From the IMG/VR virus record IMGVR_UViG_643348551_000010: a DNA stretch of 36,896 nucleotides, one strand, 5' to 3'. Below are positions 3,073 through 29,043 of the stretch, one piece after another. The stretch is from a virus (Duplodnaviria; Heunggongvirae; Uroviricota; Caudoviricetes). A program made the position numbers and the translations under genes. The notes under the pieces are model-generated. The model did no database searches. It saw only the letters and a program-made list of their open reading frames with translations, and was not told the DNA's origin. Every line of letters begins with the position of its first letter. The first letter of the stretch is position 1.

Positions 3073-3100
3073 AACAAGGCCCGCTATCGGGCCTTAATTT

Positions 3101-3631: not shown

Positions 3632-5134
3632 TTACACCTGTGCGACGTTATACCATGTGCCATTGATGTATTTTTGTATTGGTCTGAAGATGGCTTCATC
3701 ATCGCCATCTACTTCACCAATGATTCTTAATCCGGTAATTGCGTGTCCGGCTTTTTCATAACGACCACCACGCGCCATCAATTGAACAACACGCGTACCC
3801 AGGCGAACATCTTTCACATAACGGGAATCAAAGTTACCGTAATCCGAGGGGTTAACACGCCCTGTAATATTTATGGTTTTATTACTTTGAATGCTGCCGG
3901 AGACAAAGCGCATAACATGGACGTTATTAGCATAAACGTCCAGATTACCGTCGCCATTTTGTTTAAAGCCCGTGTCATTATCACCCAAAACAATCGAGTT
4001 ACCGCCAAGAGCACTGGATGTTCCGATACCCAGTGCACCATTCAATTGACCACCAGATAATGACAACGCCCCAACATCAGCAGCAGTCGGTTTTATGTGC
4101 GAACTGTAAATTACATATACAGTCCCATCTGTCAGGCCTGTCGGTTTATTCGCTGTATAAGTTGGTGATGTATGAATTTGTACAGTGGCATCCTTTGTAT
4201 AATCCCACTGGATATTAACACCCGTGGCGTAATTACCTATTTCTACATAAATGTCATAGGTATCACCGGATGTATTCACCCATGCAAAATTAGTAAATCC
4301 AACCGAGGTCCGTCGCCATAATGCACCAGTAATACCCTTTGGATTTCCATTTCCGGCACGCAGAACCAGCTCAGAGATGCCTGCTTGCTGCGGGGAGCCA
4401 ACGTTATACCCTGCACCACCAATCAGGCTTATGTAAACCACGGAACTGGCTTGTGGCATTGTTACAGTTGCCAGTTTGAACCATCCTGCACCACCATTAA
4501 AAGACATGGTTGTTGAATTTGTTGCTCCAATATTGCGCAGGAATAATCTTTTATCAGGAATATCTGCGCCATTCTGGTTTTTCTGCAACGCACCAGAAGC
4601 CTGATTTACCGTTTCCTGTAAACCGAGGTTTTGGATAAACAGCGGCTTATTGGGAATATCTGCTCCGTTCCGGTCTTTTGCCAGACGGGCATTGGCATTA
4701 TCCATCGCAATTTTCACCGCTTTTGCGGTGGCTGCCAGCGTTTCACTGGGGCTGTCAGTGGCACTGGTTAGCTGAACGAGTCCTTTTTTGTTCAGGCTGG
4801 CATCATAGATATCCAGATTTTCACGTGCTGTACGCTGTGCTGATGCCCCGGCAATTTTAATTTCGCTGAGGTTATTTTTTATCAGCAGCGCGTTATTGCT
4901 CATAATGGATTTAATGGACAGTGCAAGCTGGTTTAATTTTGTTTTATCCGGTTGAATACCGGCTTCTTCCAGCGTGTTTAATAACTCCGCCTGCACAATA
5001 TTAAACCAGTCCATGCCGGGCCATGTGATAACATTATTCCCGTCACCTTCTGAAAACCAGCGAACGATAGCACTACGCTGGGCGGATACGGGCGGCATGA
5101 CGGTTACGCCGCTGTCGTTATCAATATAAAACAT
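3632..5134 (-). CDS. S: Tail fibre protein S (constant part outside G joined to variable part inside G)
   Basis: 500-aa ORF spanning the gix site at 4613-4638; internal duplicated NGADIP.K.LF motif flanking the crossover region. Confidence 0.85.
   Translation of the reverse strand: MFYIDNDSGVTVMPPVSAQRSAIVRWFSEGDGNNVITWPGMDWFNIVQAELLNTLEEAGIQPDKTKLNQLALSIKSIMSNNALLIKNNLSEIKIAGASAQRTARENLDIYDASLNKKGLVQLTSATDSPSETLAATAKAVKIAMDNANARLAKDRNGADIPNKPLFIQNLGLQETVNQASGALQKNQNGADIPDKRLFLRNIGATNSTTMSFNGGAGWFKLATVTMPQASSVVYISLIGGAGYNVGSPQQAGISELVLRAGNGNPKGITGALWRRTSVGFTNFAWVNTSGDTYDIYVEIGNYATGVNIQWDYTKDATVQIHTSPTYTANKPTGLTDGTVYVIYSSHIKPTAADVGALSLSGGQLNGALGIGTSSALGGNSIVLGDNDTGFKQNGDGNLDVYANNVHVMRFVSGSIQSNKTINITGRVNPSDYGNFDSRYVKDVRLGTRVVQLMARGGRYEKAGHAITGLRIIGEVDGDDEAIFRPIQKYINGTWYNVAQV
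4613..4638. repeat. gix recombination site (S-internal)
   Basis: ttcctgtaaaccgaggttttggataa, inverted copy of 1566-1591. Inverted-repeat identity continues inward for about 46 bp perfectly and about 115 bp imperfectly. Confidence 0.85.
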
Positions 5135-7777: not shown

Positions 7778-8904
7778 GGCGGCGTTTTCTCCGGGTGTCT
7801 GCGATAATAATCTTCAACCAGCGCATCAATACCGCCGTTACTGTCGCCGCCTTTCCTGTTTTTACGGTCGCTTTCAACCGGCACCAGAAAGCCTTCGCGT
7901 GGTGCAAGGCTGAGGCGGGTTTTCAGCCCGTCCTGGTCATTCAGTATCAGGGTGACTTTGCTGACCAGTAATTCTGTGGTTTTGATGGCATATTTCGAGG
8001 CATCAATAGTGACCAGCAGGTTCGGCATCCAGAGTTGCCCGTCCTTGCGTGTCCATCCGTCAATTTCTGCCTCAAAGGTGATGGATTTTGCCAGTCTGCG
8101 GCGTTGCTCACGCAGGGCGCGGGCCTGTGCATCCTTCGCCGTAATTTTGCTGTCGGCAATGATGATCATCGGTCTGTAACGGGTCACATCACTGTCAGTG
8201 GCGGTCCCTTTCCGGGAGACGATACTTTTCGCATCAATATCATCACCCTCAGCACCGTTTGCGCGGGCATACCCCTTGACGGTGTATTCGCTGAACCGGT
8301 CGCGGAAGTCTTCCTCAAAATCCAGTGTCAGCAGATTTTCTCCGAGAACCAGCTCATCAGTGGCTGTGCTGGCAGCCCGGCTGAATACCAGCTCTCCTGC
8401 GGCATTGCTGGTCATCAGTACACCGCGTGCGCGGGAGGCACGCACCAGCGCCTCATAAACGGTTTCTGAATGGTCCAGCGTGAAGCCGGGAAAAGCTGCC
8501 GAACTTTCCTTATCGGAAAGCTCCCAGCGAACGGTAACGCCATAAGGAGCGCACAGGTCACGCGCAATCTGTTCCAGTGTGCGGTTTTTCCACTGCCCGC
8601 CACTGTAAACGGCTGCACAGTCAATCAGGTCAGCCGTTTTGTCGCGCCCGGCAATAATGATTTTCATGCTGTCAGCGGCCATCTGGCGTCGCCGCGAATC
8701 GATGTAACCGGTGCAGACAATCTGCCCGTCGATTTCCAGCGTGAACGCTTTCCCCGGTGCCAGCCCGGATAAATCTGTACCCGGTGGCACATTCACCCCC
8801 AGCTCAAAATATCCGGCTACGGATTCAATGGAGCGGGTGACAGAGACTGACGTCCAGCCGGTAAACAGCCTGCCATCCGCTCGCAGTGTGACGGTATTAC
8901 TCAT
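7765..8904 (-). CDS. Baseplate hub / tail protein (Mu gp44, gene P-like, tentative)
   Basis: 379 aa, immediately downstream of the N gene. Confidence 0.7.
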
Positions 8905-10384
8905 TAATCACCTCAATACTGACACCACCGGGAACAAATAACGGGTTGCTGATACCGTTCCTGCGGGCCAGCCGTTGCCAGTTCCGGCTGTTTCCGGTGA
9001 ACCGGTACAGTGCAACCATTGCCGGGAGCGTTTCTGGCAGGTGGTGTGATTCACTACCCGCCAGTTGCAGCCCGCGTTTTTCCAGGTCGGCAACAACCAG
9101 CAGACGCAGTTGCGTAAGCTGAACACTGTCTGTCGAAAAACCCTGCTCAGATGCCGTCAGAATGACGCTATCCAGCGCCGCCCCTAGCATGGCAGTTGTT
9201 TTTTCGATATCGGACACGCTTTCAAATACCGGGGGCGTGGCTGTGCTACTGTCTGAAAAGGATACTGGTGAAAAGCCGCCGTCCGGGGTTATCCCGGTTA
9301 ACTGCAACTGGCTTTGTGTGACCGTGGACGATGTGCTGCTGGCACCACTGGCGATGCCGGTTGTTGTGACTGATACATCCAGCGCCGGTGCGCGGGCGGC
9401 ATTATCCATCTGACGGCTGGAATCCAGTGCCGCAGTCAGTGCCTGGCTTGCTGCCTCCGCCCGGTATGTCTGTGCTGCTGCCAGCATGACGTAGTTCAGT
9501 GTGGCAATATTTTTTTCTGCAACCGGGCTGCTGTATGAAGTGGTAATGGCACCTTGTCTGTCAGTGGTGGAGGCATGTCGGCTTTCGAACCGCTGCGCCA
9601 GACGGTTCCAGGTGGAAAATGCTGTTCGGGTATCGCATAACGATGAAACGCCGGATAACGCCCCCATCAGTGAAGATGTCAGCATGGCTGGTTTATTTAT
9701 CAGGCCGGTCACAGAACCTTTCATTGCAGAAAGTAACCCCATCAGGCCGCTGACAGTCTGGGTGATCCCCAGATTATCCACCGCATCACAGATATCATCG
9801 ATGACACCGGTGACGGCATCCATTACGGCTGTTGCCGCCGCTGTGCCATCTTTTACGGTCTGCCAGACAGAGGACAACGTATCCCCCAGCGAACCGGTTA
9901 CAGCAACGGCCTGCGCAGATACGGCTGTACTGGTGTCTGTTTCTGCGTCCGGGGCTGTATCCTGCAACGACGGATAAACGGTAACGGTGAACGCGTAATA
10001 ATTCAGTTCATCCGCTTTAGTACGGCATTCCCATGAATCCACCATGACGTCCACAGTGCCGAACTCTGGATGCACCAGTTCGCCGCTGCCCGGTGCATCA
10101 AGAGCATCCATCAGCGCACCCGCTTCATCTCTGGCAGTCTCTGCGTTGCTGTTCAGAATGCAGATGCTGAATGTGCGGGAGCGAAGTTTTTTCCCCAGGT
10201 CATTGACACCGCCGGTATCACGTAACGGGTACTCGCGTTTAACCAGACGACGTCCGCCAGCCTGTTTTTGCTCCTCAATGACGAGAAACGGCACGTTACG
10301 GAACGTGCCTTTGCCGGTTGTTTTCTTACCACCGCCGATTTTATCCCGGACAGAATTAACGGCATTTAAAGCATCTTCAAACAT
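8897..10384 (-). CDS. N: DNA circularisation protein N-like tail protein
   Basis: 495 aa directly downstream of the tape measure gene, as in Mu. Confidence 0.75.
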
Positions 10385-25357: not shown

Positions 25358-25786
25358 TTACAGCCCTGACGACATACCCGGCATTAATCCCGGCACCGGT
25401 AACACATCATCATTCAGCAGCTGATTATTACGGGGAGCGGGCACAGCACCAGAACCGGCGCTGAACATAAACACCGCCAGTGCATTTTTTTGCTCCTCTG
25501 TCAGTGGCCTGTTCAGATGGGTATTTAACGTGTCATAAACAGGCTTCAAATCTGCTTTCAACAGCATGATGCATTCACCATAGCTGTAAGGGCGTTGCTG
25601 AATATCAGGACCGTGATGGTTAAGGCAAACAGTCAGTTCGCCGTGCTGATCTGTGTATGGAAGGTACTGAACAGAAGCCAGCGATGAATCACCATCGCCG
25701 GACAACTGCCAGCCACCACATGCCGCCAGTACCACGATGGCAAGCGTTCTGATGATGCGGGGGAGACGTTTTTTAAAATCGTTCAT
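25358..25786 (-). CDS. lys: Endolysin with signal-anchor / lipobox-like N-terminus (lysozyme-like core)
   Basis: 142 aa, ATG 25784-25786 with AGGAGG SD; N-terminus MNDFKKRLPRIIRTLAIVVLAACGG; core motif LTVCLNHHGPDI resembles lysozyme-like endolysins; first gene after C, as in Mu. Confidence 0.65.
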   Translation of the reverse strand: MNDFKKRLPRIIRTLAIVVLAACGGWQLSGDGDSSLASVQYLPYTDQHGELTVCLNHHGPDIQQRPYSYGECIMLLKADLKPVYDTLNTHLNRPLTEEQKNALAVFMFSAGSGAVPAPRNNQLLNDDVLPVPGLMPGMSSGL

Positions 25787-25858
25787 GAAACCCTCCTTCG
25801 GTAATAAAAGGAGGGTAACTCAGGGGAATTTGCAGACGGGGTTATTATTAATTAACAC

Positions 25859-25876
25859 AACCGGCCTGCACCGGTT
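25859..25876 (-). terminator. Stem-loop just downstream of C (candidate end of middle transcript)
   Basis: aaccgg / cctgca / ccggtt hairpin 13-30 nt after the C stop, followed by AT-rich sequence. Confidence 0.35.
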
Positions 25877-25888
25877 GATTGCTGTTAC

Positions 25889-26299
25889 TCAGAATAAATC
25901 GGGCTGATGTCGCCGTGAATGAAGTTTTCTCTGCCGGGCAATAATCTTGTAAATCTGCGGTTGTGACAGACGATGTTCACGCCGCAGCTCCTCTATGTTC
26001 CGACCGTTAAACTGGCAGTAAATCAGATCATCCCGCAACGCTGCCAGAAGTGCATCACCCCGGGGGATGTAATACTGCCGCCCCCCCAGGAACCATGATA
26101 AGGACATCACCTGTTTACGGGCTATGCTCCGTGCATCATCCACGCCCTGACGTTTCAGTTCTGTTTCCAGAACGTCAACCAGCTCAACCAGCGCGCGGGG
26201 CCAGCGGGCCTCCTGCTCAGGAGCCGGTATATTGTCGATATGATCCATTAACTGGCTTACAGCCGGATCATGTTCAAATAAATCCTGCTGATTTGTCAT
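25889..26299 (-). CDS. C: Late transcription activator C (Mor/C family)
   Basis: 136 aa; shares the C-terminal motif FNGRN..EL with the mor product at 27659-28048; located immediately upstream of the lysis genes. Confidence 0.85.
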   Translation of the reverse strand: MTNQQDLFEHDPAVSQLMDHIDNIPAPEQEARWPRALVELVDVLETELKRQGVDDARSIARKQVMSLSWFLGGRQYYIPRGDALLAALRDDLIYCQFNGRNIEELRREHRLSQPQIYKIIARQRKLHSRRHQPDLF

Positions 26300-26435: not shown

Positions 26436-26812
26436 GCCTCCGCGCCAGACGGTACTGAACGTCGCAGACAGATATGGAGGCGAAAGCAAAACCATATGCT
26501 ACAGAAGCCAGATAAAGCATAAATCGTGAACTGATGCGCTTCTTCTAAAAGCCCGGTTGCAATAGCCGAAAGACTTAACCCGACGAGGCCACCAAGAAAA
26601 TCAATGGCATTAATAGAAGCATAACGTCGGATTTTTCCTGTCCGGGACAGATCATCAAAAATAGTGCCGGTAAAGCACAGCGCCACACTGAAAACGGCAG
26701 CATTCCAGAACAGCAGCGCCCGCAAACCATAAAACAAGCTGATAATCAGAATCAGCGCCAGCAACATGACCGGCAGACAATTTGGTAACAAATAACAGAA
26801 ACGCTTAAACAT
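26432..26812 (-). CDS. Integral membrane protein (multiple predicted TM segments)
   Basis: 126 aa, ATG 26810-26812, several hydrophobic stretches; middle-operon position upstream of C. Confidence 0.6.
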   Translation of the reverse strand: MFKRFCYLLPNCLPVMLLALILIISLFYGLRALLFWNAAVFSVALCFTGTIFDDLSRTGKIRRYASINAIDFLGGLVGLSLSAIATGLLEEAHQFTIYALSGFCSIWFCFRLHICLRRSVPSGAEA

Positions 26813-27023
26813 GATGCTTTTCCCTGTAACGCTGGCAGTGGTGAATAATTTCTGGCATATCGACTGACTGCCAGCCTTTCATGTAATAGCTCCCGTGGGT
26901 GCCATCGTGCCCTGTGTAATCCATTGGCTTTGGTGGTGGACCTCCGGCCTCCCGATGCAACACCTCCTGTCGTAAACGTTCGCGTCTGCCAAACCGAAAG
27001 GACGCATCCCACCCTTTACCCAT
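26805..27023 (-). CDS. Hypothetical middle-operon protein
   Basis: 72 aa; ATG 27021-27023 overlaps the stop of the muramidase gene, SD gggagg 8 nt upstream. Confidence 0.6.
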   Translation of the reverse strand: MGKGWDASFRFGRRERLRQEVLHREAGGPPPKPMDYTGHDGTHGSYYMKGWQSVDMPEIIHHCQRYREKHHV

Positions 27024-27576
27024 GCAGAACCTCCCGGCAGGCGCTGGCGAGCAGATCCAGACGGTTAAACCAGCCGTTCAGATATTTCCCCTGCGAGGCA
27101 CTGGATTTGATAATCCCTGCGTAATAGCGGGAACGACGCAGGAAACACTGCAACAGCAGCCAGTCAGTATCGGCACGCAGTACGGCTGCGCGAGTGTTTT
27201 TGCCGACGATGCCATCATCATCAACACCTGCTGCCGCCTGGAGGATTTGAATTGCGCGTTTAACACCGTGCTGAACGGCAGCATCAAAGACGAATAAGGA
27301 AACACCATCAGGCCATTCGTTACACTTTGCCGCCAGCCAGTAATCACGCCAGTAGATTTGCGCCGCCTGCTCGTGGGTTAAATCTTTAATACGGGTATCA
27401 GGCTTCCCGTCACCGTTAACATCGGTTTTGCCATCAATAACGCCGTCGCGACGGTCAGAAATGCCGTATTTGGTTTCGCCGCCACGGTCAGTGGGATCAT
27501 TAACGTAACCACCTTCAACATCAGGCCGTATAACAAAATTCAGCGAATGAAGGAATGCAGGGGAAAACTCAGGCAT
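27016..27576 (-). CDS. GH108-family peptidoglycan hydrolase-like protein (predicted muramidase with C-terminal PG-binding-like region)
   Basis: Motif EGGYVNDPTDRGGETKYGI typical of the GH108 N-terminal domain; start set at ATG 27574-27576 with SD aggaggg (the track start at 27609 is a GTG). Confidence 0.7.
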   Translation of the reverse strand: MPEFSPAFLHSLNFVIRPDVEGGYVNDPTDRGGETKYGISDRRDGVIDGKTDVNGDGKPDTRIKDLTHEQAAQIYWRDYWLAAKCNEWPDGVSLFVFDAAVQHGVKRAIQILQAAAGVDDDGIVGKNTRAAVLRADTDWLLLQCFLRRSRYYAGIIKSSASQGKYLNGWFNRLDLLASACREVLHG

Positions 27577-27632
27577 GTTGCCCTCCTGTAATGAACGTTT
27601 TATCGTCACAACAGAATATTGAGGGCGTAAAA

Positions 27633-27653
27633 AAAGCCGGATTAACCGGCTTT
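27633..27653 (-). terminator. Rho-independent terminator immediately downstream of mor (early-transcript terminator)
   Basis: aaagccgg / attaa / ccggcttt: 8-bp stem followed by a T5 run on the sense (minus) strand, 6 nt after the mor stop. Confidence 0.7.
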
Positions 27654-27658
27654 ACTGT

Positions 27659-28048
27659 TTAAAACAGAGGGGGTTGATACTGACGATACTTTATACGCCG
27701 CATTCGTCGGATGGCTTTATAGACAGTGTTAAACGTCACACCATAACGAATTGCCAGTTCGTGAACATTGCGCCCGTTAAAATCATTCCAGATTCGTAAA
27801 TCCCGAACCAGTGAATCCAGCACCTGCCCACGAGGAATATAGACCTGACCACCGCCAAGATGTTTACAGATAGCCACAACAATCTCCAGAGAGTGCGCAG
27901 GTTCAACGCCCAGCCGGGACAGTTCCTGACGCAGCACATCGTTCAGTTCCGCCAGCAGTGCCGGAAATCGTGACGTATCCCCGGATTCATTGTCAAGATG
28001 AGCCAGGATACTGTCATCCTGAAAGTCGCCAAACAAATCCTGCGTCAT
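27659..28048 (-). CDS. mor: Middle operon regulator Mor
   Basis: 129 aa; ATG overlaps the gemA stop (ATGA); paralog of C. Confidence 0.9.
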   Translation of the reverse strand: MTQDLFGDFQDDSILAHLDNESGDTSRFPALLAELNDVLRQELSRLGVEPAHSLEIVVAICKHLGGGQVYIPRGQVLDSLVRDLRIWNDFNGRNVHELAIRYGVTFNTVYKAIRRMRRIKYRQYQPPLF

Positions 28049-28626: not shown

Positions 28627-29043
28627 ATGAAAATTGATTATGACGAGATAGCCAGAATATTTGATGTATTCCTGGAGGCCGACACTGCATTCATTCGACT
28701 GGAAGATGTCGGCTGGGATCGTTCTCAGCGGCACAGCGACAGCCATCAGAAGCTGGTTTTCCATCTTCTGTTGCTGGTTGAAAATGGTTTTATCAGCAAC
28801 AGATATCTGGAAACAGGCACCGCAAAAAGCATTGGTCTCACCCCGACAAGCCTCGGATATTCATATTCAGGCACCAGTGTCAGACTCACACAAGATGGTC
28901 ATGATTTTGCGAAAGCACTACATCAAAAACCCATTCTTGAGCGTATAAAACAGGAGCTTGCCGACGCCCCGATGACGCTCGTAACAGACGTCGGCAAACA
29001 GTGGTTAACCTCGTTTCTTAAAAAGAAACTCGGGATTGAATAG
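28627..29043 (+). CDS. Hypothetical 138-aa protein encoded opposite to the early operon (candidate prophage-expressed accessory gene)
   Basis: ATG 28627 with SD aagga 7 nt upstream; fills a 393-nt interval with no minus-strand ORF; start codon only 15 nt from the divergent gemA start; 3' end converges on the next early gene. Confidence 0.6.
   Translation: MKIDYDEIARIFDVFLEADTAFIRLEDVGWDRSQRHSDSHQKLVFHLLLLVENGFISNRYLETGTAKSIGLTPTSLGYSYSGTSVRLTQDGHDFAKALHQKPILERIKQELADAPMTLVTDVGKQWLTSFLKKKLGIE

Follow-up and report, generated by a model that had tools for sequence, protein, structure and literature searches.

Middle transcription in phage Mu requires the activator Mor (PMC2582627), and the promoter on which Mor acts, Pm, has a 16-bp Mor element that is made up of two 5-bp inverted repeats around a G/C-rich 6-bp spacer and is centred at -43.5 (PMC4390567, PMC4287176). 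The reported footprint of Mor covers positions -56 to -33 (PMC4390567). The late promoters of Mu (Plys, PI, PP and Pmom) are like Pm in being sigma-70 promoters that have a -10 hexamer and no usable -35, and in carrying a 16-bp imperfect dyad that is centred at -43.5 and bound by a dimer of the Mor/C family (PMC2582627), but their dyad has a different sequence and they are activated by another protein, C, which is a paralogue of Mor. No cross-activation takes place between Mor and C (PMC4287176).

In the GenBank record of Mu (AF083977), mor occupies 8781..9170, and a terminator at 9179..9200 (TransTermHP) is annotated within the middle promoter at 9163..9233, which is described as "activated by Mor". 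The record of phage D108 (GQ357916) has a "rho-independent terminator" with the same sequence at 9228..9249, and both terminator features are computational predictions. Our literature search gave no usable account of how the early operon of Mu is terminated, and a full-text search for the hairpin sequence returned only a cloning primer. The early terminator of Mu is presumably the one called t9.2.

Here we describe the corresponding junction in a Mu-type prophage. From the stop codon of mor to 3 nt past the T run that follows the hairpin, the prophage, Mu and D108 are 100% identical in the alignment, and between that point and the end of the -10 hexamer there are two substitutions relative to Mu. 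We regard it as very probable that the junction is a boundary of the Mu type between mor and the middle operon, with a terminator placed within a Mor-activated promoter. The sequence is that of the mapped Pm of Mu, and we infer from this likeness that termination and dependence on Mor would apply to the prophage as well.

The prophage and the genes around mor

The window, by which we mean the whole stretch of 36,896 nt that was analysed, is a Mu-type prophage in Escherichia coli that is read in reverse, with its genes on the minus strand. Prophages in E. coli PEC422 and TUM9757 share 99.3% DNA identity with it, and over gemA-mor the identity to Mu, D108, SfMu and the Yersinia YpM phages is 83-91%. 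Four proteins encoded on the minus strand near the junction were identified as GemA, Mor, a muramidase with GH108 and PG_binding_3 domains, and a second protein of the Mor family, which is the counterpart of Mu C. The early operon that precedes the junction thus encodes a cognate Mor, recognised by the Pfam Mor domain and 87% identical to the Mor of Mu, and the helix-turn-helix stretch VTFNTVYKAIRRMRR is the same in both. The gene name mor is correct, and the product is the predicted activator of the promoter directly downstream.

The gap between mor and the muramidase gene is 82 nt long, and the ATG at 27576 is found 57 nt past the last base of the stem, the same distance as in the preliminary description. 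The list of open reading frames had chosen a GTG at 27609 as the start of the muramidase. Because the middle transcript is predicted to start downstream of this codon, the ATG is the likely start codon. The positions of the features are given in Table 1.

Table 1. Features at the junction between mor and the middle operon, in window coordinates
Feature	Position	Strand	Basis
mor (129 aa), last gene of the early operon	27659..28048	-	Pfam Mor PF08765, E = 3.9e-33; gemA directly upstream
Equivalent of the RNA polymerase alpha-CTD footprint (-61..-59)	27664..27666	-	Homology to Mu (PMC4390567, PMC4287176)
Equivalent of the proximal UP-element subsite (-57..-52), TTAAAC (Mu GTAAAC)	27657..27662	-	Alignment; contains the mor stop TAA
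Stop codon of mor, TAA	27661..27659	-	Sequence
Predicted Mor-binding element AGTAA-AGCCGG-TTAAT, Pm -51..-36	27641..27656	-	Identical to Mu; predicted by homology
Predicted terminator hairpin: 5' arm AAAGCCGG 27653..27646, loop TTAAT 27645..27641, 3' arm CCGGCTTT 27640..27633	27633..27653	-	
Run of seven T, U-tract and also Pm spacer (-30..-24)	27629..27635	-	Invariant in all relatives examined
-10 hexamer TATTCT (Mu TATCCT, -13..-8)	27613..27618	-	Alignment and MLK7 register
Predicted start of the middle transcript	27603..27606	-	Inferred from Mu +1 (A9224)
Shine-Dalgarno sequence AGGAGG of the first middle gene	27582..27587	-	Sequence; kept in close relatives
Muramidase with GH108 and PG_binding_3 (186 aa), first gene of the middle operon	27016..27576	-	PF05838, E = 3e-24; PF09374, E = 6.9e-14

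In Mu, gp18 is the first middle gene and there is no GH108 muramidase, whereas in the window the muramidase comes first and is followed by a homologue of gp18 at 26805..27023. The late lysozyme of the Mu type is retained at 25358..25786 (minus strand), and the prophage thus has two peptidoglycan hydrolases in different temporal classes. Just upstream of gemA there is an ORF of 138 aa at 28627..29043 on the plus strand, opposite to the early operon, which would be an antisense-oriented insertion in a semi-essential early region. A DUF2513 protein is found among the RefSeq features of this region in related E. coli prophages.

Another hairpin, CAACCGGTGCAGGCCGGTTG, is present at 25858..25877 (minus strand), directly after the gene of the C homologue (25889..26299) and before an A/T-rich stretch and the lysozyme gene. 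It fits the layout of Mu, where a terminator is followed by Plys, and the stem sequences of the window and Mu differ. In both phages a hairpin directly precedes the promoter at this junction too, but the annotated terminator in Mu merely abuts the promoter there, with an overlap of 4 nt, and does not lie inside it.

Predicted terminator and promoter elements after the mor stop codon

The preliminary description reported a strong intrinsic terminator 6 nt after mor, with an 8-bp GC stem, a 5-nt loop and a following TTTTT. The hairpin and its 5-nt loop are there, and the stem begins 5 nt after the stop codon. It has 8 bp, but only five of them are G-C pairs (27650..27646 with 27640..27636), and the other three, all A-U, take up the first three bases of a run of seven T, which leaves a tail of TTTT-A. 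Two foldings can thus be drawn, either the 8-bp stem at -11.7 kcal/mol followed by four T, or the 5-bp G-C core at -8.3 kcal/mol followed by all seven.

Both strands were scanned with our own implementation of the d'Aubenton-Carafa terminator score, and the hairpin ranked first in the whole window with d = 22.2, the runner-up having 9.8. When the whole 36.9-kb window was shuffled with preservation of dinucleotides, an equally good or better site arose in 2 of 100 shuffles, and the folding energy of the 81-nt region gave z = -3.0 in comparison to shuffles. Read in the direction of the plus strand the site is weak (d = -11.8). A generic terminator scan of the window did not list the site, most likely because it extended the stem into the T run, so that too few T were left for the tail, and Rfam at gathering thresholds gave no match in the window. 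The runner-up, GGCCCGATAGCGGGCC at 3078..3093, has a positive score in both directions (minus strand 9.8, plus strand 0.9) and may terminate transcription from either side.

A G-C-rich hairpin followed by a U-tract is accordingly present on the transcribed strand, and it is the sole terminator candidate in the 82-nt gap. It shares with canonical intrinsic terminators its position at an operon end and, on the coding strand, a G-C-rich stem-loop with seven U behind it. A role as the terminator of the early operon, as first proposed, is supported by this anatomy and by the annotation of the identical Mu sequence as a (predicted) terminator. It is the best candidate in the window, but to call a hairpin of five G-C pairs strong would be to overstate it. 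A terminating ribosome could disturb the folding of a stem that starts 5 nt past the stop codon. With this position and five G-C pairs, the efficiency of termination could be modest.

The register of Pm in Mu was worked out from data in the literature on a primer, on permanganate reactivity and on mutants. Primer MLK7 spans +10 to -9 of Pm (PMC4390567), the permanganate-reactive T of the bottom strand are at -12, -4, -1, +1, +3 and +4 (PMC4287176), and the wild-type sequence at -57 to -52 is GTAAAC (PMC4390567, Table 3). The three data sets agree on A9224 of Mu as +1, which makes AGTAA and TTAAT the half-sites of Mor, and positions were transferred to the window by subtracting the Mu coordinate from 36829. 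The G-C arms of the hairpin were also tried as the Mor dyad; this puts the start at Mu 9229/9230 and leaves no sensible -10 hexamer, and it was rejected.

On Mu numbering the hairpin and the T run occupy -48 to -24 of Pm. The published Mor element, with its inverted repeats and G/C-rich spacer, is found unchanged in the window; the spacer is the 5' arm of the hairpin and the right half-site is its loop, while the G-C part of the 3' arm is at -35 to -31, the place of a -35 hexamer. The window and the Pm of Mu are identical from -56 to about -20, including the critical TAAA of the UP-element subsite (-56 to -53), and are placed alike, directly after the mor stop codon. They differ by a C for T at -20, by TATTCT in place of TATCCT, and at 27662 (minus strand), the equivalent of -57, by a T for the G of Mu. 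Substitutions at -57 had little or no effect (PMC4390567, Table 3), and the same paper cites an earlier report in which a change from G to T at this position doubled the activity of Pm. The equivalent of the alpha-CTD footprint lies within the coding sequence of mor, and the bases there differ from those of Mu.

The -10 hexamer is present without either of its usual partners, as in Pm. It is preceded by CAA and not by the TGn of an extended -10, and the hexamers 16-18 bp upstream of TATTCT match TTGACA at 0-1 of 6 positions. The +1 of Mu maps to 27605, where the nearest purines are A27606 and G27604, and a start at about 27606 leaves a leader of 30 nt. This leader is 3-5 nt longer than in Mu, owing to an indel that lies past the -10 hexamer, either at the start site or beyond it. 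Since the window differs from Mu after the hexamer, both by the indel and by another first gene, the exact start site is a prediction.

The preliminary description saw almost no room for a middle promoter before the next gene, and suggested that promoter and terminator might overlap or that the promoter might reach into the 3' end of mor. The objection about space does not hold, as Pm overlaps the terminator in what is a known compact design of Mu. Both suggestions proved sound, the first because the Mor site would cover the 5' arm and the loop of a hairpin that in Mu is annotated inside the promoter, and the second because, by homology to Mu, the UP-element subsite includes the mor stop codon and the alpha-CTD footprint is within mor. 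Both are already documented for Mu, and in this respect the finding is an ordinary one.

One could still imagine that the middle promoter of this phage is located elsewhere and that the junction holds a terminator and nothing more, as the downstream gene is a GH108 muramidase instead of gp18 and the length differs by 3-5 nt after the -10 region. We find this scarcely credible, because none of the mapped Pm elements between -56 and -8 is missing, the two substitutions among them look silent, and the indel is confined to the start site or the bases after it. Furthermore, a sigma-70 consensus scan found no full promoter in the gap between mor and the muramidase gene, and the same GH108 gene stands behind the motif, with the same geometry, in dozens of relatives.

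The core sequence in Mu-like relatives

Among the viral contigs that were found by their Mor protein (87-100% identical), the motif is unchanged in 23 of 25. We also built a Mor alignment and retrieved 13 genome loci by the Mor protein alone, from Raoultella, Pluralibacter, Klebsiella, Serratia, Kluyvera, Brenneria and Trabulsiella, with Mor only 54-67% identical. A core of 24 nt, AAGCCGGT(T/A)AATCCGGCTTTTTTT, is exact in all 13, a few hundred nt downstream of mor and between flanks that cannot be aligned. The core is also present in Klebsiella phage Kp4866-3, which came up in a DNA search with the gemA-mor-muramidase region. In two very distant relatives, L027 and L028, where Mor has 37-39% identity, the motif is absent.

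In most of the loci with a Mor of 54-67% identity (L029-L039 and L066) a small gene begins within about 10 nt of the mor stop codon, and when translated it gives a protein of membrane or signal-peptide type. No hairpin is found at the mor stop in these loci and the motif comes only after the small gene, from which we conclude that their early operon ends one gene later than that of Mu. The gene downstream of the motif was a GH108 homologue, as in the window, in the distant loci where it was checked, and the motif followed by GH108 is the usual order among them. A scan with the 24-mer matched more than 120 viral contigs, nearly all of them ordered GemA, Mor, motif, GH108.

The distance from the core to the -10 region is nearly constant too. 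Among 56 distinct downstream sequences, 96% have a hexamer with A at its second and T at its sixth position exactly 10 nt after the T run, and at every other offset such a hexamer occurs in 16% or less of the same sequences. The spacing was not part of the search pattern, and the test is independent of it. A fixed distance of this kind supports the geometry of a promoter.

The fixed spacing also bears on the thought that the 24-mer is mainly a short patch of homology where modules are exchanged among Mu-like phages. Such a patch would look like an island of identity between unalignable flanks, and the core does separate interchangeable cargo: what follows it is gp18 or GH108, and what precedes it is mor or a gene for a small membrane protein. 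We see next to no chance of this being the main function, however, since the 10-nt spacing to a -10-like hexamer and the experimental data from Mu point to a promoter, and any exchange by recombination at the patch would follow from promoter function and would not be an alternative to it.

No variation of the stem was seen in 38 loci (36 of the 38 retrieved by the Mor protein, together with Mu and Kp4866-3), and degenerate scans of viral contigs in which the stems or the half-sites were left free returned the canonical sequence only. With an invariant stem, comparative data cannot separate the function of an RNA hairpin from that of a DNA site. This is where the junction departs from canonical intrinsic terminators, as the primary sequence of stem and loop stays fixed even among distant relatives and shows no covariation, for the reason that stem and loop are a protein-binding site too.

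It is on this point that a pure promoter element has to be considered, in which the dyad and the T run are kept for Pm alone, as Mor site, contacts in the -35 region and a spacer that is distorted, and the hairpin arises incidentally and causes little or no termination in vivo, the middle genes being insulated by Rho, by the requirement for replication or by similar means. Full invariance of the primary sequence in very divergent phages, with no compensatory change, is typical of a DNA site bound by protein and not of an ordinary terminator; the stem begins very close to the stop codon, and Mu needs DNA replication for middle transcription as well (PMC2582627). We nevertheless consider it unlikely. 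All features of a canonical terminator are present at the top-scoring site of the window, and the motif is always at the end of an operon, including a second copy after an F-like gene in other phages. The 3' arm and the T run lie outside the footprint of Mor, yet are as invariant as the 5' arm, which fits a need for complementarity. The simplest reading would be a double constraint, in which binding of Mor fixes the 5' arm and the loop and the 3' arm for that reason stays complementary.

The second exact copy of the 24-nt core is found about 7.7 kb downstream on the same strand in some Mu-like viral contigs, among them L068 (about 4001..4024, minus strand), L083, L098 and L102. According to Pfam it sits between genes that are like F and I of Mu, followed by the gpT capsid gene, and the -10-like hexamer CATACT stands exactly 10 nt after its T run. 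In Mu it is the C-dependent PI promoter that is used at the F/I junction. A search with C as the query matched only the mor gene in the loci with two copies, which are partial. Such phages may therefore use one activator at both junctions. The window itself has no second copy, even when 3 mismatches are allowed.

Just after mor in L005 (IMGVR_UViG_2531839192_000008), part of the hairpin region is repeated in tandem, GCCGGTTAATCCGGGAATCCGGCTTTTTTTACGCCCTCAATGCCGGTTAATCCGGCTTTTTTT; the terminator/promoter core may really have been duplicated there, or the repeat may be an artefact of assembly.

A boundary proposed to be read first as RNA and then as DNA

In the proposed mechanism a single stretch of 45 bp would serve twice, first as RNA and then as double-stranded DNA. 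The early transcript from the left-end promoter would run through mor and stop at the hairpin and U7, about 30 nt past the mor stop codon, and because the polymerase is halted there, the middle genes, including that of the late activator C, would not be made by read-through from the early operon. As Mor accumulates, a dimer would bind the duplex at 27656..27641 and substitute for the absent -35 contact, recruiting sigma-70 RNA polymerase through alpha-CTD and sigma, with the alpha-CTD at a site that shares bases with the mor stop codon. Transcription would start at about 27606, downstream of the T run, and for that reason the middle transcripts would not contain the terminator.

The promoter half of this mechanism has been shown by experiment for the identical sequence in Mu and is carried over to the prophage by analogy. 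For the other half, three things point to termination: the canonical anatomy of the hairpin, the annotations, which are based on predictions, and the published need of middle transcription for Mor, which demands that early transcription stops somewhere between mor and the middle genes.

In the literature that could be searched we found no earlier description of the wide conservation of a frozen terminator-in-promoter core; this conservation is a modest extension and not a new kind of system. A bolder generalisation is that the core is a portable module for stopping and restarting transcription, an intrinsic terminator within an activator-dependent promoter, that is common to many enterobacterial Mu-like prophages and is used twice in phages with apparently a single Mor/C protein, before the muramidase/lysis genes and at the F/I junction. 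Its stem could not covary, since the 5' arm and the loop are the binding site of the activator. To us the case for this generalisation is evenly balanced, and if it is true, the phages with two copies have a transcription cascade of two tiers and not three.

For the annotation of the prophage the gain is that the end of the early operon is fixed, that the middle promoter and its likely start can be placed, and that the ATG at 27576 is favoured over the GTG at 27609. An invariant motif at a constant distance from the -10 hexamer, which sometimes occurs twice per genome, could also help to mark operon boundaries in Mu-like prophages, and the junction is a clean example of one sequence that is constrained both at the level of RNA and at the level of DNA.
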